DNA of 28,378 nt, taken from assembly GCA_040220235.1 (NCBI GenBank), contig JAVJTO010000106.1; one strand, given 5' to 3'. Positions 1-23,226 of the stretch are shown here, in pieces. This DNA comes from Coleofasciculus sp. B1-GNL1-01 (GTDB lineage: Bacteria; Cyanobacteriota; Cyanobacteriia; Cyanobacteriales; Coleofasciculaceae). The translations under genes were made by a program, and so were the position numbers. Position 1 is the stretch's first letter. Each line of letters opens with the position of its first letter. The notes below the pieces were generated by a model, which saw only the letters and a program-made list of their open reading frames with translations, did not search any database and was not told the DNA's origin.

Positions 1-5
1 TCAAT

Positions 6-42
6 GTTTACCCATTGAGGCTCTAGGTGTATATATTTCCTT
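6..42. repeat. 37-bp direct repeat, copy 1 (GTTTACCCATTGAGGCTCTAGGTGTATATATTTCCTT)
   Basis: Identical to 4336..4372 by direct comparison. Confidence 0.9.
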
Positions 43-273
43 ATGATAAAACCCTACCAAAAAAATGGCGCGATCGCCCTTGGAAAAAAATCATAACATC
101 CCCAACCGGGCGTACACTTGCCAATCAGCTTACAATAAAACCTAGTTGTGTTCTTTGACGGTATTGGTACACCTTGCCGCGGATTTGGACAGAGGCGTCG
201 TTTCGGTCCTCCGCTTCGCTGCGGACTCCACGAACCATGACATATTTTACCGTTAACGGCTACGAGAGAATTC

Positions 274-417
274 GCGGGCGTGATTGGATTGAATAGAAGG
301 GATGCGATCGCGTTTGGGTTGGGTTGAAGGGAAAGAGTGCGATCGCGTTAAGGTTAGGTTGAGGGGGAGAGAGTGCGATCGCCTTTGGGTTAGGTTGAGG
401 GAATAGAGTGCGATCGT
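274..417 (+). repeat. HIP1-anchored ~35-bp tandem repeat array A
   Basis: GCGATCGC at 304, 339, 375 and GCGATCGT at 410, separated by units like (G/C)TTTGGGTTAGGTTGAGGGGAGAGAGT. Confidence 0.9.
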
Positions 418-483
418 AATGCCTTTGACTCTTAAATAAAATAAGAAAAGACTCAATTATCACCGCACTCCGCGCACAAAACC

Positions 484-798
484 ATGGCACTCACCACCAC
501 CGAGTACAAATACATTCAACTTGATGAGCGCAATATTCCCATCATCGCCGGAACCACGATGAAAGTTGTGGAACTGATCACATCAGCTAAAGCTTACCAC
601 TGGACTCCCGAAGAACTACATACCAACTATCCCCATGTCTCCCTGAGTAAAATCTATTCAGCCTTAGCCTATTACTGGGATCATAAACAGGAACTTGACG
701 CCGATATCGAGCGACGTTATCAATTTGCCGAACAACTCCGACAGGAAGCAGGAGAATCTCCCATTGCCCAAAAATTGCGAGCAAAGGGGCTATTGTAG
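484..798 (+). CDS. DUF433-family protein, putative antitoxin
   Basis: PIIAGTTMKVVELI...TPEELHTNYPHVSLSKIYSALAYY matches the DUF433 pattern; stop overlaps the downstream GTG (TAGTG). Confidence 0.85.
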   Translation: MALTTTEYKYIQLDERNIPIIAGTTMKVVELITSAKAYHWTPEELHTNYPHVSLSKIYSALAYYWDHKQELDADIERRYQFAEQLRQEAGESPIAQKLRAKGLL

Positions 799-1145
799 TG
801 AGTATTGCTCTTTATATGGATGAACAAGTCCCCAAACCCATTACAGTTGGGTTACGTCAACGAGGCGTAGATGTTTTGACTACTCAAGAAGACAAGCACA
901 CAGGAGTCCCTGATCCGATTTTACTTGACCGCGCCGCAGAACTTGGGCGGGTTATTTTCTCTCAAGACGATGACTTTCTTTCAGAAGCTCATCGGCGTCA
1001 GGTAGAGGGGATAAATTTTGCAGGCGTTATTTATGCTCATCAGCGGAACGTTTCTATTGGAGACTGTGTGCGAGATTTAGAACTGATTGCTAAAGCCTGC
1101 GAACCTGGAGATTGTAGCAACCGAGTCCACTATCTTCCTCTGTAA
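798..1145 (+). CDS. DUF5615 PIN-like putative toxin
   Basis: LYMDEQV...LRQRGVDV...PDPILLDRAAELGRVIFSQDDDF is the DUF5615 PIN-like signature; usual partner of DUF433. Confidence 0.85.
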   Translation: MSIALYMDEQVPKPITVGLRQRGVDVLTTQEDKHTGVPDPILLDRAAELGRVIFSQDDDFLSEAHRRQVEGINFAGVIYAHQRNVSIGDCVRDLELIAKACEPGDCSNRVHYLPL

Positions 1146-1158
1146 ACTTGTGCCAAAG

Positions 1159-1405
1159 GCGATCGCGTGGTGATTCGGTTGAGGGGAGAGAGTGCGATCG
1201 CCTTTGGATTAGGTTGAGGGGAGGAAGTGCGATAAGCTTCGCTTGTGCCGAAGGCAATCGCGTTTGGGTTAGGTTGAGGGGAGGAAGTGCGATCGCGTTT
1301 GGGTTAGGTTGAAGGGAGAGAGTGCGATCGCCTTTGGGTGAGGTTGAAGGGAAAAAGTGCGATCGCTCTTTGGGTTGAAGGGAGAAAGTGCGATCATGCG
1401 ATCGC
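1159..1405 (+). repeat. HIP1-anchored ~35-bp tandem repeat array B
   Basis: HIP1 at 1159, 1194, (split 1229-1261), 1289, 1324, 1359, 1398 with GGTTAGGTTGA(G/A)GG-type units. Confidence 0.9.
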
Positions 1406-1436
1406 ACGTCAGCGCTTACGTGATACCTTCAGTAAG

Positions 1437-1775
1437 CTACGCTAACGCAAATTCAGTATATTGTCTAACATGAGGTGGATGAAACGCTAAAACAATCTCC
1501 TCTCGTGCAATCCCTTTGATCAACAAATCTGTCGCCACTCCATCCTCTGTCCAATCTTCCTCAATCCAAATTTTGTCATCTTTCAAACGTATATGAATCA
1601 TCACACTCTTAATCCGCTCATCTTTGTGCCAACCCATCAACAGCAAAAGGTAATGATCATGTATCTCATCAAAAGCTAAAGCACTTTCAGTTGTCGAACC
1701 CGATTTTTGATTGAGTTGATGATAGTCTGTTAAAACATCTTGGATGATTTGACGATAATGCTTTAATCTATCCAT
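1437..1775 (-). CDS. xisI: XisI-family protein
   Basis: FDEIHDHYLLLLMGW...IHIRLKDDKIWIEEDWTEDGVATDLLIKGIAREEIVLAFHPP. Confidence 0.9.
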   Translation of the reverse strand: MDRLKHYRQIIQDVLTDYHQLNQKSGSTTESALAFDEIHDHYLLLLMGWHKDERIKSVMIHIRLKDDKIWIEEDWTEDGVATDLLIKGIAREEIVLAFHPPHVRQYTEFALA

Positions 1776-2179
1776 TGCACAATTACCTCACTCTCGGCAT
1801 CAACAATTAACAACTTCACTTGATTACGATTGATAATCATCTGGGTTAACTGGCGTTGAAAATAACTTTTATAGGTTCCTTGTGTAATCGCCAAATACAG
1901 TTCAAAATCTAATGCTGTTTCTAGCAAAATATCTCGATAAACAACATACTGACCCACAGCTTGCTCTAAGTCTTTAATAAATGAGCGACCTAAAAAACTT
2001 TTGACTTCAACAAGAATTTTTTGACCCTGTTTTTCGGCTACTATTGGTTTTTCGGCTGCAATATCCACGTATAAGCGATCGCCACCATACTCCAAAGAAT
2101 AATCTTCCGTTAAAATCTCCCACCCATCCTTGACCAATGCAAATCTCACAGCATTATGGTAAATATCCTTAGTCGGCAT
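1763..2179 (-). CDS. xisH: XisH-family protein (PD-(D/E)xK-like fold)
   Basis: MPTKDIYHNAVRFALVKDGW...DIAAEK...VEVKSF...AVGQY; 13-nt overlap with xisI. Confidence 0.9.
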   Translation of the reverse strand: MPTKDIYHNAVRFALVKDGWEILTEDYSLEYGGDRLYVDIAAEKPIVAEKQGQKILVEVKSFLGRSFIKDLEQAVGQYVVYRDILLETALDFELYLAITQGTYKSYFQRQLTQMIINRNQVKLLIVDAESEVIVQWID

Positions 2180-2227
2180 CTATAGTGTTGAAGTACATAC
2201 CCCTTCAATTTTAACGAGATATAGGAG

Positions 2228-2488
2228 GCGATCGCCTGTCTTAGGATTGAAGGTAGAGAGAGCGATGGCGTTAGCGGAGTGGGGCGCTCTTAGCGCACAG
2301 CGCTGCTGCGTTAGACAAGCGACTCTGAAAGAGTCAGCGAGATCGCGGGCGTGATCAGATTTGGGCATAGAGTGTGATCGCGTTTGGATTAGGTTGAAGG
2401 GAGGAAGTGCGATCGCGTTAAGGTTACGGTTGAAGGGAAGAGAGTGCGATCGCCTTTGGGTTGGGTTGAGGGAAGAGAGTGCGATCGC
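2228..2488 (+). repeat. HIP1-anchored tandem repeat array C between the divergent xisH genes
   Basis: HIP1 at 2228, split 2262-2346, variant GTGATCGC near 2374, then 2409, 2446, 2481. Confidence 0.9.
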
Positions 2489-2558
2489 ACTTTTGATGAA
2501 TTTCCAGTTACAATAACCCTTAAAGACGCTTGCGTCATGTCAAATTATCCATCTGTCT

Positions 2559-2975
2559 ATGCCAGCCAAGGATATTTTTCACAACACCGTTCGATTAGCC
2601 CTAGAAAAAGATGGCTGGGTAATCACCGATGATCCTTTACACCTGAAAGTTGGCGGAACAGAAATGTATATAGACTTAGCTGCAGAACGATTAATTGCTG
2701 CCCAGAAAAATGGTCAAAACATAGCCGTTGAAATCAAAAGTTTTTTGCGAGAATCGGAACTAACTGAATTTCACTTAGCCCTTGGTCAATTCCTGAACTA
2801 TCGCTTGGCATTAAAGCAAAAATTACCCAATTTTGTTTTATACCTAGCCATTCCTACAGATACTTATAATACCTTATTCCATCGCCAATTCATTCAGGAC
2901 GCTATCGAAGAATATCAACTAAAACTACTAATTTTTGACCCCAATAAACAGAGAATTGCAGCATGGAAAGCTTAA
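2559..2975 (+). CDS. xisH: XisH-family protein
   Basis: MPAKDIFHNTVRLALEKDGWVITDDPL...DLAAE...AVEIKSF...ALGQFLNYR. Confidence 0.92.
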   Translation: MPAKDIFHNTVRLALEKDGWVITDDPLHLKVGGTEMYIDLAAERLIAAQKNGQNIAVEIKSFLRESELTEFHLALGQFLNYRLALKQKLPNFVLYLAIPTDTYNTLFHRQFIQDAIEEYQLKLLIFDPNKQRIAAWKA

Positions 2976-3292
2976 ATATAAAAGAGATAGTCCAACAAAT
3001 CATCAAAGCGCACGCTATCAATCTTAAAGATGATCAGACAGAAGTCCAACTCATTTTTGATAATGAGCGTAATCATTACCTAATGATGGTAGTAGGTTGG
3101 TATGACCAACGACGGGAATATGAGAGCCTAATTCATATTGATATCAAAGATAGCAAAATTTGGATTCAGAGTGATGGAACTGAAATAGGAGTAGCCAAGG
3201 AATTGGTTGAAGCTGGAATTCCACGACAGGATATAGTTTTAGGATATAAGTCTCCCTTTAAACGGCAATTTACTGAATATGCTCACCTGTAA
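2963..3292 (+). CDS. xisI: XisI-family protein
   Basis: FDNERNHYLMMVVGW...IHIDIKDSKIWIQSDGTEIGVAKELVEAGIPRQDIVLGY. Confidence 0.92.
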   Translation: MESLNIKEIVQQIIKAHAINLKDDQTEVQLIFDNERNHYLMMVVGWYDQRREYESLIHIDIKDSKIWIQSDGTEIGVAKELVEAGIPRQDIVLGYKSPFKRQFTEYAHL

Positions 3293-3318
3293 TCTGTAGA
3301 AGGAGTTGCACGCCAATA

Positions 3319-3484
3319 CCCGGATTTCTCACAAGTTTTGCGATCGCACTCTCCAAAACCTTTACCTAGACTAGGTTCTGGGCATTTTTGATGAACCAAG
3401 AATTTCGACAGAGTGTTGAATGCCTTATTTTACCGTCGATCCAGGCTTTATAAGCCTTTGGGGAATCGTGGTGAGAAATCCGGG
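3319..3484. mobile_element. 166-bp MITE with 14-bp terminal inverted repeats and 5-bp target duplication
   Basis: CCCGGATTTCTCAC (3319-3332) / GTGAGAAATCCGGG (3471-3484); CAATA on both sides (3314-3318, 3485-3489). Confidence 0.85.
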
Positions 3485-3628
3485 CAATAGCCCATACTTT
3501 GGTAGAACGCACTCAGTACCAGAGTCACGTCATGCTATTGGCAATGGATTTGCCATCATTCAACAGAACCGAAACCCCATCTACAGGCGGACACATTTTC
3601 ATAAGATGAAAGTATACCAGAAAAAAGC

Positions 3629-3667
3629 GCGATCGCTCTTTGGGTTGAGGGAAGAAAGTGCGATCGC
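3629..3667 (+). repeat. HIP1-unit-HIP1 (array D, short unit variant)
   Basis: GCGATCGC TCTTTGGGTTGAGGGAAGAAAGT GCGATCGC. Confidence 0.85.
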
Positions 3668-3706
3668 ATAACTTGTAAAATGGGTTTCGTTCCTAGTAAC
3701 ATTGAC

Positions 3707-4053
3707 TTATTTCCCAAAGTCTTTAGAAGTCAGGGAAAGTCCAGGATTCAAATCATTAAAAAACTTGGCTAGAGATTTGGCTTGAGCTTTGCTCACCCCC
3801 CTTTCACCATTAATAATCTCCCTGACAAGCTCAAGAGAACCAAAAATCTCCACTAAAGTAGCAGGCTGCACATCCAACTCGTGCATTAGAGACTCCATTG
3901 TCGCCTTCTGCCTTGGGATACTTTTTCTGAACATCTAACAAATTAGACCACTTTGCTTTAGACGCAAAGTTATACCAGTCATTGAGAGCGTCTTCAGCAA
4001 TCTTCGTGTTCAACCCAGAATTCCCGCAACTTTGCTTTGCTGATTACATGCAT
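3707..4053 (-). pseudogene. higBA: Decayed higB-higA toxin-antitoxin pair: frameshifted HigB N-terminus joined by deletion to the HigA HTH C-terminus
   Basis: ATG 4053 gives MHVISKAKLREFWVEHED, a frameshift near 4000, then AEDALNDWYNFASKAKWSNLLDVQKKYPKAE; from ~3905 another frame reads MESLMHELDVQPATLVEIFGSLELVREIINGERGVSKAQAKSLAKFF (HigA-like HTH). Confidence 0.8.
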
Positions 4054-4161
4054 CCCTTTTTGTCTCTATAGCCTGTATCCGTTACCATCATTCAACAGAA
4101 CTAAATTTCTACTTACAGGCGCACACATTTTTCCACTCTAAAAGTATACCAGAAAAATAGT

Positions 4162-4250
4162 GCGATCTGCGCTAGCTCTTTCAAGCCGCTCCGCTAACGC
4201 AGCAGCGCTTCGCTATCGCTCTTTGGGTTGAAGGGAGAGAGTGCGATCGC
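4162..4250 (+). repeat. Split HIP1 plus short unit plus HIP1 (array E)
   Basis: GCGAT...ATCGC (4162-4219) then TCTTTGGGTTGAAGGGAGAGAGT GCGATCGC. Confidence 0.8.
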
Positions 4251-4299
4251 TGTGGGAGCATGTCAAGTTTGCACAAAATGGCCCAGTTAGTTGGCTCTC

Positions 4300-4328
4300 G
4301 TTGGGTTTCGTTCCTCAACCCAACCTAC
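4300..4328. repeat. REP-like hairpin GTTGGGTTTCGTTCCTCAACCCAACCTAC
   Basis: GTTGGGTT/AACCCAAC stem with CTAC end (GTAG on the minus strand); partial copy near 3680. Confidence 0.75.
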
Positions 4329-4335
4329 AAAGGTG

Positions 4336-4372
4336 GTTTACCCATTGAGGCTCTAGGTGTATATATTTCCTT
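4336..4372. repeat. 37-bp direct repeat, copy 2
   Basis: Identical to 6..42. Confidence 0.9.
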
Positions 4373-4543
4373 CAAGTAAACCGTGATCCTACTAGATTGG
4401 TAAAAAAGAGCGATCGCGGTCATATTTGTTTCAGGAGTTGCTTGCACAAATGTACAGAGTGAGAGGGGTTCAAAAAATGCATTTATGTCCCTCGCTTGTA
4501 GGCATTCCGTTATTTAGTTTTGGGGGTAAATTAAAATGTATCA

Positions 4544-6453
4544 TTAATTTCCTTTTACCTGAAGTTCATACAGATTCCAAAATGCCCCATTTAATGCCGA
4601 AAACTTGATTGGAGTAATCCGATCGCGTACTGCTTGCAACGAAAGGGAATTCACTAAATAAAAAAACGGAACTTGTTCCTGGACAATTTGTTGAAATTGA
4701 CCATAAATTTCTTGGCGCTTCCGCTCATCTAACTCCTTCACCCCTTCCTCAAATAAACGATCAATTTCCAGTTCCCAATCTGAGACTTTCCAGCCTTGAA
4801 TCGGCGGTTCTCCTGGCATTTGCCCCTGGTTGAATTGATGTAATGAGCCTTGGGAATACCAAATATTAAAGCTATTGTGAGGTTCCACACCACCTCCACC
4901 AAATCCACCAACATACGCTTCCCAGTCTCGACTCATCAACTTCTGCACAATCACATTAAAGTTAATTACCTGTAAATCAGCTTGAATCCCTAGATTACTC
5001 AAATCCTTTTGAATCTGAACCGCCGCGTCGATACGAGACTTTTCTTCGGCTTTCACCAACAGTGTGAATTGCACCGGGTTATCCTCCCAGTCTAAGAGTT
5101 TCCCTTGGTCATTATATTTAAATCCCGCATTGAGGAGTAATTGCTTCGCCTTTTGCGGGTTATACGCATAAACCTTTAAGCCCTCCTGTGGAGACAAATA
5201 ATAAGGACTTTGCACAGCAATAGGCGAATGCTGTAATTCACCCAATCCTCGAAAAATATTGGTTTTCATCGCGTCGCGGTTAATCCCATAAGCCACAGCT
5301 TGGCGAAAGGCTAACGTATTAAACCAACGAGATTTTATCGGATCAACAAAGGGTTCTCCTTTTTCATTCTTGGCTTTGTTGAGATTGAAGCCAAAAAATC
5401 GGGTATCTGAGGAAGCACCACCATTATAAATCGTATAGTTTCCCCGGTTTTCTTCCTGCTTGAGTAAGCCAAACATTTCCGGCGCAACGTCCAGACTATC
5501 CAGTTCTCCCGAACGAAATCGAATAAACTGGTTATCGGTATTTTCAATAATTTGGACAACAATTCGCTCGATATAAGGTTGAGACGTTCCTTGACTATCC
5601 TGACGCCAATAGTAAGGATTACGCTGAAAAATTATTCGTTGAGCCGGGGTATAACTGACCATCTGATAGGGACCATTGCCAATGATTTGTTGAGGCTCAG
5701 TGTCGGTTCCCCAAGTGGACAGGAAATTCAGGTTACCATTCGCATCGGTAGTGTTGATCGACTCTTGGAGAATATGCTTGGGTAAAATAGTAATACCGCC
5801 AGCATAACGTAAAAATGGGGCAAAGGGTTCAGGAACCGTAAACTCAACTCGCCGTTCATCAAGTTTTCTCACCGAAGGAAATGCGCCTGAAGTCCCAATT
5901 CGTAGAATATCTCTGACCCCCGTAGAAATCTTTTCATTCAGATAAATCTGATTATAAGTAAAGACAATATCATCAGCCGTGAACGGTTCTCCATCCGACC
6001 ATTTTAATCCAGGGCGTAGCGTAAACGTAATTCGGCGTTTATCCTCCGAGATATCCCAAGATTTCGCCAATCCCGGTTCTAATTCAGAGGTGATCCCATT
6101 TTCATTAATCAATCCATCATAAATCAAGCCAAAAACAATCCGACTAAAAAACGATTCACTAATCGCCGAATTAAACGTATCCGGATCAGAAGGAGACACA
6201 AAAACCAGTTGTGAAACTTGAGCCGCCTTACTTTTAAACTGACTGGGATTACAACTACTGAGACTGGTAAGTAGGTGGGGACAATTAAAGTTAACGGTGG
6301 GGATCGTCATTCGTCATTCGTCATTCGTCATTTGTAAGGGTTTGAGGCTTGTTAACATAACTTAATATGGTTGAGTTTATTTCCACCAACCTACTTAACC
6401 GTAAACATAGAAAGGAGAAACAATAAAAACCAACGGCGAATTCGATCAATCAT
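4544..6453 (-). pseudogene. Peptide/nickel ABC transporter solute-binding lipoprotein (family 5), signal peptide interrupted by a MITE; mature part intact (ORF 4544..6310)
   Basis: LAKSWDIS...FTLRPGLKWSDGEPFTADD family-5 signature; removing 6270..6397 restores MIDRIRRWFLLFLLSMFTVTSLSSC in frame. Confidence 0.8.
6268..6397. mobile_element. TA-flanked MITE (AGTAG...CTACT ends), copy 1, with internal (CGTCATT)n
   Basis: TAAGTAGGTGG...CCAACCTACTTA; near-identical ends at 22810..22993; TA duplication shown by ORF restoration. Confidence 0.9.
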
Positions 6454-6685: not shown

Positions 6686-8467
6686 CTACTCCTCAGAAAT
6701 TCTCAACTCGTGGATATTCCAGAACGCACCCCCTAAAGCCGAATACTCAATCCCCTCCACGCGATCGCGCACAGCCGTCATCGATAGCGGATTCACCAAA
6801 TAAATAAAAGGTAAGTGTTCTTTAATCAGGCGTTGGGCTTCACCATAAATGGCTTTGCGCTTCTGTTCATCTAACTCTTGAGACCCTTTAACATAGAGAT
6901 CATTAATCTCTTTCTCCCAAGGCGCAACTTCCCACCCTTGAATCTCCGGTTGACCAACCGTTGGTTTTTGATTAAAACTGTGCAATCCACCTTCCGTAGA
7001 CCAGACATTAGCACTATTATTCGGTTCTAATCCGCCACCGGAAAAACCCAGGAGATGACATTCCCAATCCAAGCTATTACTGAGTTTTTCCACTAAAGTA
7101 CTAAACGCAATCGGATTAAAATCCACTTGCATACCAATTTTCGCCAAATCTCGTTTAATTTGCGCTCCCATGGCTTCGCGCAGTTTATTCCCCGCATTGG
7201 TAATTAAGGTAAAACGCACTCGATTCCCTTGATCGTCGAGGAGTTGTCCTTCATCGTTATACTGGAAACCTGCGCTTAACAGTAATTCCTTGGCTTTGTC
7301 CCGATTATATTCGTAAATTGGCAGTCCCTCTTCTGGAGACAAATAATAAGGACTTTGTACCGGAAGATTGGAATACTGCGGTTCACCCAATCCCCGAAAC
7401 GAGTTATCAATCATCGTTCTTCGGTCAATCGCATAAGCCACTGCTTGTCTAAATTCCAAGGTATTGAACCAACGAGATTTCATCGGTTCAATTAAGGGTT
7501 CGCCATCTCGACTTCCTTTGTTCAGATTGAAGGAAATAAAACTAGAACTTAGGGTGGGACCGCCAACGTAAATATTAAAGTTACTGCGTTCCTCTTCCCG
7601 CTTAAGGAGGGAATAGAAATCCGGTGAGACACTAATCGCATCTAACCCACCAGAACGAAATTGCAAAAAGGCAGTATCGGTGGATTCAACAACTTCCCAG
7701 AAAAGGCGATTAATATAAGGTTGGGGTTGACCTTGAGGTCCCTTGCGCCAGTAATGGGGATTGCGGCGAAAGACTAAGCGTTGATTGGTATTGTAGCGAT
7801 CCAGTTGATAGGGTCCGTTGACAATAATTTTATCCGGGTCAGTATCCACCCCCCAAGTGGTCATAAACTTGGGTCTTCCTTCTTGGTCTTTCTCAGTTAC
7901 CGTATCCTTAAGGGCGTGGGCGGGTAAAATTGCCAGTCCTGTGGTGCGAAGAAAGGGCGCAAAGGGTTCGGGTGTGCTAAATTCAACTCGTCTTTGATCA
8001 AGTTTCCGCACGCTGGGAAAGCCGCGTGTTTCGCCAATTCTGAGAATGTCGCGAGTATCGGTAGGAATGTCTTCGTTGAGATAGATATCGTTATAGGTAA
8101 AGACGACATCATCAACCGTTAAAGGTTCTCCATCAGACCACTTTAATCCCTCTCGCAGGGTAAAAACAATCCGCTGTTGGTTATCGGAGATATCCCAAGA
8201 CTCAGCCAGAGAGGGTTCAATTTCTCCGGTGACACCATTTTCAGTTACCAGTCCCTCGTAGGTATACCCAAAAATATTCGGCGACTCCTGAGAGAGGGCG
8301 TAGTTAAAGGTTTTGGGATCACTGAGAATACTGGTGACAAGTTGTGAACCCTGGGCGGCTTCCGAAGTAAAGGTTGCAGGGTTACAGGCGGATAGTGCGA
8401 TCGCAATGATACAGGTCAGTAGACTCAGACACCAGCGACGCAAAGGAATATTTGCCAAGATAGTCAC
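6686..8467 (-). CDS. Peptide ABC transporter solute-binding lipoprotein (OppA/AppA/DppA-like, family 5)
   Basis: Lipobox LSAC after RRW plus hydrophobic stretch; SDPKTFN, LAESWDIS, FTLREGLKWSDGEPLTVDD. Confidence 0.92.
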   Translation of the reverse strand: MTILANIPLRRWCLSLLTCIIAIALSACNPATFTSEAAQGSQLVTSILSDPKTFNYALSQESPNIFGYTYEGLVTENGVTGEIEPSLAESWDISDNQQRIVFTLREGLKWSDGEPLTVDDVVFTYNDIYLNEDIPTDTRDILRIGETRGFPSVRKLDQRRVEFSTPEPFAPFLRTTGLAILPAHALKDTVTEKDQEGRPKFMTTWGVDTDPDKIIVNGPYQLDRYNTNQRLVFRRNPHYWRKGPQGQPQPYINRLFWEVVESTDTAFLQFRSGGLDAISVSPDFYSLLKREEERSNFNIYVGGPTLSSSFISFNLNKGSRDGEPLIEPMKSRWFNTLEFRQAVAYAIDRRTMIDNSFRGLGEPQYSNLPVQSPYYLSPEEGLPIYEYNRDKAKELLLSAGFQYNDEGQLLDDQGNRVRFTLITNAGNKLREAMGAQIKRDLAKIGMQVDFNPIAFSTLVEKLSNSLDWECHLLGFSGGGLEPNNSANVWSTEGGLHSFNQKPTVGQPEIQGWEVAPWEKEINDLYVKGSQELDEQKRKAIYGEAQRLIKEHLPFIYLVNPLSMTAVRDRVEGIEYSALGGAFWNIHELRISEE

Positions 8468-18751: not shown

Positions 18752-18813
18752 AGGGGAAGATGGGGGAGATGGGGAAGATGGGGGAGATGGGGAAGATGGG
18801 GGAGATGGGGAAG
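18752..18813. repeat. 9/18-bp tandem repeat GGGGAAGATGGGGGAGAT
   Basis: About 3.5 copies of the 18-mer. Confidence 0.85.
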
Positions 18814-18967
18814 TAATAGACTGACATAGTTGAAAACGTAATCATTGAACCCAAACCCCCATTTTTTGACCTAACCCTAGGCTCATCGGGCATAATAAAT
18901 TTTATGGTTGGCGATCGCGAACTGGTGTTCTAGTGCGTCCTGGCAGAAATAACTGAACAGCTAACAT

Positions 18968-19033
18968 CTCCCCCTGCTCCCTCTGCTCCCCCTGCTCCCT
19001 CTGCTCCCTCTGCTCCCCCTGCTCTCCCTGCTT
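18968..19033. repeat. 9-bp tandem repeat CCC(C/T)CTGCT
   Basis: About 7 copies visible. Confidence 0.85.
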
Positions 19034-22110: not shown

Positions 22111-22119
22111 GACAGAGCA

Positions 22120-22168
22120 GGGGGAGCTGGGGAAGCTGGGAAAGCTGGGGGAGCTGGGGAAGCTGAGG
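22120..22168. repeat. 9-bp tandem repeat GGG(G/A)(G/A)AGCT
   Basis: About 5 copies downstream of hisD. Confidence 0.8.
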
Positions 22169-22246
22169 ACGAATATTCTCAATGACCTCTTCCCCAATAA
22201 CTGACCTTAAGAGTACTATTTAATTCCCCATTCCCTGTTCCCGAAC

Positions 22247-22281
22247 AAAGGACAAATGACAAATGACCAAGGACAAATGAC
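22247..22281. repeat. Heptamer repeat (AA(A/G)(T/G)GAC-type)
   Basis: AAAGGACAAATGACAAATGACCAAGGACAAATGAC. Confidence 0.8.
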
Positions 22282-22380
22282 TTTTGTCAAACCAGTAGAC
22301 AAAACCTCTGATCAAGAGGGAAAATTCCTATTGCTGGGAGCCGATCGCTCACAATCGCTCATGAATGAGGAGAAATTTTG

Positions 22381-22806
22381 GTGCTAAAGACGATTCTGGT
22401 AGCTCTCGACAGCTCCAAGCCAACCTATCGCTTAATTGAAACCCTGGATAACCTACAAATAACATCAGCCGCCAAAATTATCTTGTGCCATGTCATGCCT
22501 CCTCAAGACCCTGACATGGACATCCCTGTAGATCGTCCACATCCTTCGGAGGAGTTTCTTTACCAAGAAACCGAACAGCAACTGCACCTGTATCAATCTA
22601 AACTCCCTTGTTCGAGTGAAATTCAAATTGTTAACGGTGATCCCGCCGCCGAAATCATTCGCCTTGCCCATATTTACCACGCGGATTTAATTGTGATTGG
22701 CACTCGTGGATTGACAGGCGTAAAGCGAATTTTGCAAGGTTCGGTGAGTAGTCAGGTGGTGGCTGACGCCCCTTGTTCGGTATTGGTGGTTAAGGCGAAT
22801 GAATAG
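22381..22806 (+). CDS. Universal stress protein (USP family)
   Basis: KTILVALDSS, GDPAAEII, ADLIVIGTRG...LQGSVSSQVVADAPCSVLVV; GAGGAG upstream (TTG at 22378 is an alternative start). Confidence 0.93.
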   Translation: MLKTILVALDSSKPTYRLIETLDNLQITSAAKIILCHVMPPQDPDMDIPVDRPHPSEEFLYQETEQQLHLYQSKLPCSSEIQIVNGDPAAEIIRLAHIYHADLIVIGTRGLTGVKRILQGSVSSQVVADAPCSVLVVKANE

Positions 22807-22809
22807 TCT

Positions 22810-22993
22810 TAAGTAGGTGGGGACAATTAAAGTTAACGGTGGGGAACTCGCTTTCGCGAGAAGCAAGCTACGTCATTCGTCGTTCGTCATACTCGCTCCC
22901 TTGAGAAGCAAGCTACGTCATTCGTTTATGTAAGGGTTTGAGGCTTGTTAACATAACTTCATAAGGTTGAGCTTATTTCCACCAACCTACTTA
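22810..22993. mobile_element. TA-flanked MITE copy 3 with nested small inserts
   Basis: Ends match 6268..6397; interior has two ACTCGCT...GAGAAGCAAGCTAC inserts. Confidence 0.9.
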
Positions 22994-23096
22994 TGTCATT
23001 GGTCATAATCAAGGGAGTGAGAAACAAGCTACGTCTTATGTCATGATCGTCCCCAGTTTCCAGACGCGCCATGACACGTCTCTACATCACTCCCCT

Positions 23097-23140
23097 ACCT
23101 TCCCCATCTCCCTCATCTCCCTCATCTCCCTCATCTCCCC
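23097..23140. repeat. 9-bp tandem repeat CCCTCATCT
   Basis: About 4 copies. Confidence 0.75.
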
Positions 23141-23226
23141 CAGCTTCCTCTAAATGCTTAACACAAACTCCGGAACGATAGTAGAAAATATGGAGGTAAA
23201 AAGGGTGCAGCTATTGTGTATAAAAG

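Follow-up and report, generated by a model that had tools for sequence, protein, structure and literature searches.

The function of the highly iterated palindrome HIP1 (GCGATCGC, an 8-letter palindrome) has been open for about 30 years, according to the accessible text of PMC5861425 and PMC13756078. The accessible parts of PMC4390886 and PMC13756078 place HIP1 at the smtB deletion in Synechococcus PCC 6301 and at plasmid recombination in PCC 7002, with the latter source also describing a precise deletion flanked by HIP1, and the available portion of a preprint reports that HIP1 improves integration efficiency in PCC 7002 (bioRxiv 10.1101/2024.09.10.611283). Some evidence for site-specific recombination at HIP1 is likewise given in the accessible text of PMC4390886, together with the bond at which the small dispersed repeat SDR5 inserts. 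Here, we analyze a 28,378-nt stretch of DNA (the window) from the start of contig C106 (JAVJTO010000106.1) of the 8.66-Mb genome of the mat-forming cyanobacterium Coleofasciculus sp. B1-GNL1-01 (GCA_040220235.1; G000 below, with other genomes, contigs, and array loci given G, C, and L numbers). Its left part holds a ~35-bp HIP1-bounded unit in five co-oriented blocks that alternate with a DUF433/DUF5615 pair, two xisHI pairs, and a broken higBA pair. This is a real and comparatively well supported cassette-swapping array with HIP1 as the joint, in which small gene pairs of toxin-antitoxin (TA) type make up one of a small number of variable rows in which gain, loss, and reordering of pieces take place mostly at HIP1.

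The locus shares features with several known systems and is identical to none of them. The accessible reports of HIP1-associated recombination describe the same octamer at the exact ends of rearrangements as we find here; those are single laboratory events, whereas here natural, polarized, multicassette arrays exchange between loci and genera. Integrons and attC clusters without an integron integrase (CALIN) likewise form variable, polarized rows of short, TA-rich cassettes that are gained, lost, and reordered, to judge from the available part of PMC4889954, but neither the integrase IntI nor an attC-like fold was seen here, the joint is an 8-bp palindrome found genome-wide, the cargo lies on both strands, and noncoding modules and tandem units are shuffled too. 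SDR5 (Elhai et al. 2008, as cited in the accessible text of PMC4390886 and PMC5861425) inserts between bases 3 and 4 of HIP1, and the window has three HIP1 sites (1229-1261, 2262-2346, and 4162-4219) interrupted by small inserts between bases 3 and 4 in the minus-strand reading. SDR5 splits HIP1, however, whereas an intact HIP1 borders the 35-bp unit and the gene modules on either side, and SDR5 is 21 nt in Nostoc, while the window insert at 1234-1258 is 25 nt and is likened to it by the insertion bond only. The accessible text of PMC5861425 states that SDR-like repeats were not found outside Nostocaceae, and the SDR5-like and nested HIP1-splitting inserts that we observed lie in a non-Nostocaceae genome; in the related locus L073, equivalent sites either have or lack a split-site insert, which is carried four times among the units. 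Repetitive extragenic palindromes (REPs) and REP-associated tyrosine transposases (RAYTs; PMC5581495, in its accessible part) have counterparts in RAYT-like genes with GTAG-type REPs inside several arrays, but not in the window, and the joints here are at HIP1. CRISPR arrays combine constant repeats with unique spacers, whereas the units here are spacer-free, and positions 1-4600 gave 0 Rfam matches. We did not find cassette arrays joined at HIP1 described in the accessible literature on HIP1 biology, integrons, and small repeats, most subscription papers being beyond reach.

The unit was located by a profile search of the whole genome, in which a match of 40 bits or more was counted as strong, and by a second approach, a sequence-pattern search with a reversed-pattern control. 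The window array contains 15 matches of at least 40 bits, all on the plus strand; beyond the window, strong matches were limited to two at C46:2895-2971 (with weaker ones alongside) and one at C172:17527, a single unit with no TA neighbor, and the highest-scoring match anywhere else in the genome reached 19.6 bits. The pattern search matched 11 times in the forward direction and 0 times in reverse, with 0 matches to the reversed-pattern control. An earlier note on this DNA had placed five repeat blocks on the plus strand, alternating with four two-gene modules, and had not seen the unit elsewhere in the window; the unit profile and Pfam (used for the gene family assignments in the window) bear out this layout, with blocks 4 and 5 being single units, and past position 4250 the profile search gave no match of 14 bits or more. 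Units are 25 to 37 bp long, C-poor, and arranged head-to-tail without spacers, with tandem arrays at 303-416, 1177-1376, and 2369-2488. Measured from HIP1 to HIP1, they start at 304, 339, 375, 1159, 1194, 1254, 1289, 1324, 1359, 2374, 2409, and 2446, with a degenerate unit at 2228 and single 31-bp units at 3629 and 4212 (blocks 4 and 5, neither tandem). Separately, among the 166 HIP1 pairs spaced 18 to 48 bp apart in G000, 30 have a C-poor spacer between them; short modules resembling the unit but differing in sequence therefore occur outside arrays.

The role of HIP1 as the joint is carried by where alignments between arrays end. The genome has 7,011 HIP1 sites, or 0.81 per kb, compared with 3.8 exact HIP1 per kb in 23 array regions. 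In chained plain alignments among 24 array regions, HIP1 is present in both partners at 79 of the 126 ends on the right and 22 of the 134 on the left; by chance, an end would fall at HIP1 in one sequence in 9.4% of cases and in both sequences in 0.8%. Right-hand ends lie within 3 nt of a HIP1 edge in 93 of 167 distinct cases, 43 of the 167 at offset 0, and each of the 146 long alignments runs in the same orientation as the units. By the same criterion, only 3 of 178 indel ends fall at HIP1 in a control that compares 415 kb of ordinary DNA from G003 with G000; HIP1 as a genome-wide indel joint is therefore rejected, and HIP1 elsewhere in the genome, unlike in the arrays, is not a breakpoint. 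Chained alignments replaced a strict-scoring first run that broke alignments within cassettes (20 of 147 ends at HIP1), and same-place repeats (L040-L042, L063, L068, L070, L072, L074, L098, L100, and the short loci L011-L030) were excluded from the counts.

Cutting the 23 regions at HIP1 yields recurring families of module starts and ends whose neighbors change: once collapsed, more than one neighbor class was seen for 7 of the 18 families of starts and 5 of the 14 families of ends, with at least one nonunit class in each. This grouping is itself anchored on HIP1, which is why plain alignments were used as well. Swaps at a bare HIP1 between unique sequences occur in families S5, S7, S10, E0, E1, E3, E6, and E8, and identity beyond HIP1 at swap joints extends for only 0 to 6 bases. 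The earlier note had taken the repeat blocks to be recombination joints at which cassettes are gained, lost, and shuffled; the gain, loss, and shuffling hold, but it is the HIP1 octamer that serves as the joint, with the units as the smallest modules, because swaps occur at unit-free HIP1 sites and one module is inverted between HIP1 sites.

Several results weigh against the reading that we favor below, host recombination resolved at HIP1. In a looser alignment run, 78 of 358 ends fell at HIP1 and 44 in units of both partners, leaving 236 in neither, and for 99 of 187 distinct left-hand ends the distance to HIP1 exceeds 40 nt. Among the ends listed outside HIP1 and units are REP clusters, internal deletions, split HIP1 sites, and left edges of end motifs, and the many ends away from HIP1 indicate that other processes act too. 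Array borders were delimited by eye, and alignment pairs are not independent, with a 14-member E0 family contributing many. Between two HIP1 sites, a 65-bp module appears in inverted orientation (L035 versus L036 and L075), which slippage does not explain. AGT lies 5' of 101 of 208 array HIP1 sites, many of them in related units, compared with 4.5% of genome half-sites, and this flank could be a specific signal. HIP1 joints are also not genome-wide, as the control shows, though they might be expected to be if host machinery sufficed.

Modules with HIP1-exact ends recur at different loci, in different cassette orders, and in different genera, with the orientation of gene modules kept. The higBA module occurs in the window and in L034, L038, L067, and L076, preceding DUF433/DUF5615 in L034, following it in the window and in L038, and standing alone between clpX and spoIID in L067 (gene names read from translations). 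A BrnT module is common to L006, L035, and L065, the last from another genus, at 86 to 90% identity; an addiction module is common to L033 and L039 at 88%; and a DUF433/DUF5615 module is common to L039, L075, and L099 at 93 to 94%. These three cassettes are thus 86 to 94% identical across genera, whereas the flanking genes of L039 and L065 are only ~65 to 76% identical to those of G000. Environmental sequencing (four runs, all in the form of contigs, with the best run containing 0.28 of the words) adds contigs that break at module borders, with other modules following the HIP1 at 70-77 and at 3629. A back-joint from 1158 to 304, considered as a sign of circular cassette intermediates, appears in contigs of three of the four runs; a similar unit after the cassette, as in L038, also explains it.

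Relatives carry such arrays at several loci, each with different flanking genes. Of 8 same-genus genomes, 5 contain the unit pattern, as does 1 of 32 other relatives, and the reversed control matched in none; a second pattern, searched across the order, matched in 18 of 301 genomes; of 10 order-wide loci that were read, L099 is a clear array and the other nine are not, most lying inside ordinary genes. Tabulating the neighbors, as the earlier note had proposed, shows that unit-marked regions carry TA-type and other small accessory genes: PemK/DUF2281 in L001, Phd/ParE with a RAYT-like gene in L032, an HNH gene with its partner, an addiction-module/ParE pair, and Tox-PL-2 in L033, intact higBA with DUF433 in L034, a ParE-like gene, BrnT, and XisI in L035, UPF0175/DUF3368 in L036 and L037, and DUF5615 and PemK/Arc in L039, alongside several small genes without a family. 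Aligning the locus across strains, also proposed there, shows that cassette content and order vary, with ends at the repeats. Both outcomes favor the note's interpretation. At the site of the window's array, L073, whose right flank is 97.7% identical to that of the window, carries units in a row without any gene, and in G002, G003, and G005 the neighboring binding-protein gene has no adjacent unit.

Adjacent small toxin-family and partner genes are present in the window as DUF433/DUF5615 and the HigB remnant, and the related arrays add HigB, ParE, PemK, BrnT, Phd, and UPF0175/DUF3368 families. The arrays are nonetheless not a TA-only system, since many modules are noncoding and one allele consists of units without genes. 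[quoted passage not shown] We rejected the proposition that TA genes are generally bracketed by HIP1: among TA-type matches outside arrays, 7 of 84 are bracketed by noncoding HIP1, within the 95% range of 0 to 7 (mean, 3.3) for random small open reading frames. The density of noncoding HIP1 near these outside genes is modestly higher (1.54 versus 0.87 per kb). The cassette system is local, and most TA genes lie outside arrays.

We hypothesize that host recombination, anchored on shared array repeats, is resolved at HIP1, which we hold to be moderately likely. The region would then be one of a few polarized accessory arrays whose modules begin and end at HIP1 and fall into TA-type gene pairs, other small genes, noncoding pieces, and, as the smallest class, units. 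Loss would occur by deletion between HIP1 sites, while gain or movement would start from incoming or ectopic DNA pairing via unit tracts, the E0/E1 end motifs described below, or neighboring modules, with the joint resolved at HIP1 by general host machinery that favors it; an array-encoded integrase would not be needed, and polarity would be imposed by the shared anchors. From what is known of these families, TA-type cargo would persist, being small, self-contained, and probably addictive or protective. Gain and reordering of this kind would resemble homology-facilitated illegitimate recombination, and the proposal is compatible with the accessible reports of HIP1-flanked deletion and HIP1-raised integration. 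The exactness of the joints, with so few extra identical bases, would also suit a dedicated HIP1-directed cut-and-join enzyme that excises and inserts modules at AGT-HIP1 sites, perhaps the one behind SDR5-like insertion into HIP1; with such an enzyme acting in trans, the arrays would be a true integron analog. The inverted module, the polarized AGT flank, and the several array HIP1 sites split by SDR5-like inserts at the described bond fit such an enzyme as well, and the changes in cassette order require reinsertion or duplication beyond deletion. We consider it unlikely nonetheless: the arrays share no recombinase, IntI (TIGR02249) scored above its cutoff in 0 of 21 genomes (G000 best, 41.6 bits versus 265), and the inversion is a single case, with orientation kept in all 146 long alignments though a palindromic core permits both. 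Its broader form, in which a trans-acting activity recognizes polarized AGT-HIP1 and excises, inserts, and sometimes inverts modules in defense and TA arrays traded between genera, is equally doubtful.

Alternatively, the 35-bp units could themselves serve as joints, as a minisatellite within a TA hot spot undergoing ordinary homologous recombination or slippage with HIP1 incidental. Units do flank most window cassettes on both sides, their number varies freely (L073), co-orientation would follow automatically, and the 44 looser-run ends in units of both partners are of the kind expected, but the swaps at bare HIP1 between unique sequences and the peak of right-hand ends at the HIP1 edge make this improbable. 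That the arrays are integron relics (CALIN) or RAYT-built has very little to recommend it. The cassette-like layout with TA cargo does recall the chromosomal integrons described in the available part of PMC4889954, RAYT-like genes or remnants with GTAG-type REPs lie in L001, L032, L034, L037, and L066, and some left-hand breakpoints fall at CTAC beside a REP. The earlier note had called the layout integron-like without attC or integrase, and this held: besides the lack of IntI, the five unit-containing stretches show no attC-like stem in a fold-only test, pairing being mainly HIP1 with HIP1. Typical attC sites are imperfect palindromes with R and L boxes; a hairpin at 181-262 was tried as one and rejected, its fold being no better than that of shuffles (z, 0.02). 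RAYT as the engine was likewise rejected. The RAYT-like genes score 62 to 64 bits against an NCBIfam cutoff of 80, 2 of 30 fetched loci of RAYT relatives carry units (both of them known array copies), and G000 has no match to the array RAYT at an E value of ≤1e-40; close relatives thus lie mostly outside arrays, and RAYT behaves as cargo. On balance, we retain host recombination resolved at HIP1 as our working explanation.

Reading the window from its left end, the array begins at the contig edge and its leftward continuation is seen in L037, where positions 1481-1892 match window positions 1-414 at 93%; window positions 1-69 are the end of a further module truncated by the contig edge and correspond to sequence upstream of a UPF0175/DUF3368 pair there (Pfam of L037). 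A 37-bp direct repeat (6-42, exact at 4336-4372) was considered as attL/attR of an island and rejected, because the left copy belongs to the upstream part of that module and the gene-free L073 retains the right copy. A HIP1-bounded, noncoding 226-bp module, S5...E2, follows on the plus strand (70-303) and terminates in a degenerate unit; it has no Rfam match, its identical start follows a different module at HIP1 in L034, and its identical end recurs in 7 places. Block 1, three units of 35 to 36 bp by tandem-repeat and unit profile matches, occupies 304-417 (plus), and the DUF433 (484-798) and DUF5615 (798-1145, PIN-like) cassette spans 484-1145 on the plus strand and also occurs in L034 and L038 beside other neighbors. 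Block 2 (1159-1405, plus) has six units, with the 25-nt SDR5-like insert splitting the HIP1 at 1229. The first xisH-xisI pair (1437-2179, minus) is spanned by single contigs in all four environmental runs.

Block 3 (2228-2488, plus) comprises the degenerate unit, the HIP1 split by nested small inserts, and four units, and is followed by the second xisH-xisI pair (2559-3292, plus), spanned by one contig in one of the four runs (X2). Within this module, a dispersed insert of ~170 bp (3319-3490), with ~10 other genome copies, is omitted in one contig of run X2. An E1 module-end motif (3579-3628, plus; 9 array copies) abuts HIP1, and block 4 (3629-3667, plus) follows. The higB-higA pair (3707-4110, minus) is broken by an internal deletion of ~356 bp at 3905/3906 relative to the intact copies in L034 and L067 (91 to 98% identity); the HigB remnant scores 25.8 bits against a Pfam cutoff of 27, and the higA remnant has no match. 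A second E1 (4113-4157), the HIP1 split by a nested insert, and block 5 complete the array (4113-4250, plus), and a right border segment between two HIP1 sites (4243-4417, plus; 97.7% identical in L073) adjoins an ABC peptide-binding protein gene (4544-6310, minus; Pfam) at its 3' end. A promoter and terminator scan stayed at chance level, with 5 promoter-like sites versus 8.6 expected.

Many modules terminate in E0 or E1, two related motifs with 26 to 29 genome profile matches, of which 11 to 13 are followed by HIP1. E0/E1 is a dispersed motif of ~45 bp, often beside HIP1, REP-like palindromes, and Uma2 or TA-type genes, with sites in G000 at C88:115700-116550, C15:27270-27880, C91:770-4080, C92:49600-50700, and ~20 more besides the window copies. 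Copies stand in tandem at ~256-bp spacing in C88 and between PIN and ParE-like modules in C91, which is a second type of array that lacks the 35-bp unit. Read by eye, the motif may contain a leftward sigma70-like promoter with a conserved leader; the promoter scan did not flag the window copies. Another HIP1-rich region without the unit, L134 (G023:C46:14402-17941), lies next to a RAYT-like gene and packs 22 HIP1 sites into 3.5 kb.

Array surroundings show further variation. Genes with an eCIS-core (extracellular contractile injection system) domain lie directly beside L036 and L039 (Pfam), and eCIS-core or similar-looking large genes, read from translations, lie beside L066, L069, L073, L075, and L077, which suggests overlap with polymorphic-toxin or immunity loci. 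Array-flanking genes are joined differently among strains (L033, L044-L047, and L067 versus C106, C46, C72, C73, and C77 of G000), with clpX beside spoIID in two strains and beside the binding-protein gene in another, and array sites may also be rearrangement points. In the window, the binding-protein gene at 4544-6310 is in tandem with a second one at 6686-8467 (~66% DNA identity); the first is missing here in several same-genus genomes, but G008 and L073 have it. At 4253-4335 lies an element with dozens of copies in the genome, a ~130-bp repeat lies near 6268 (6268-6400), and 7- and 9-bp tandem repeats lie at 18753-19032 and 22116-23150, between genes of the rpoB/rpoC region.

In these naturally occurring arrays, HIP1 marks the ends of rearrangements much more frequently than it does in control DNA, and the arrays give TA-type modules a route between cyanobacterial genera without an integron. 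Were a trans-acting AGT-HIP1 activity to prove true, HIP1 would gain a natural role as a site-specific cassette joint. The arrays also offer a compact substrate for testing what drives recombination, be it HIP1 itself, methylation of HIP1, its flank, or the 35-bp unit.

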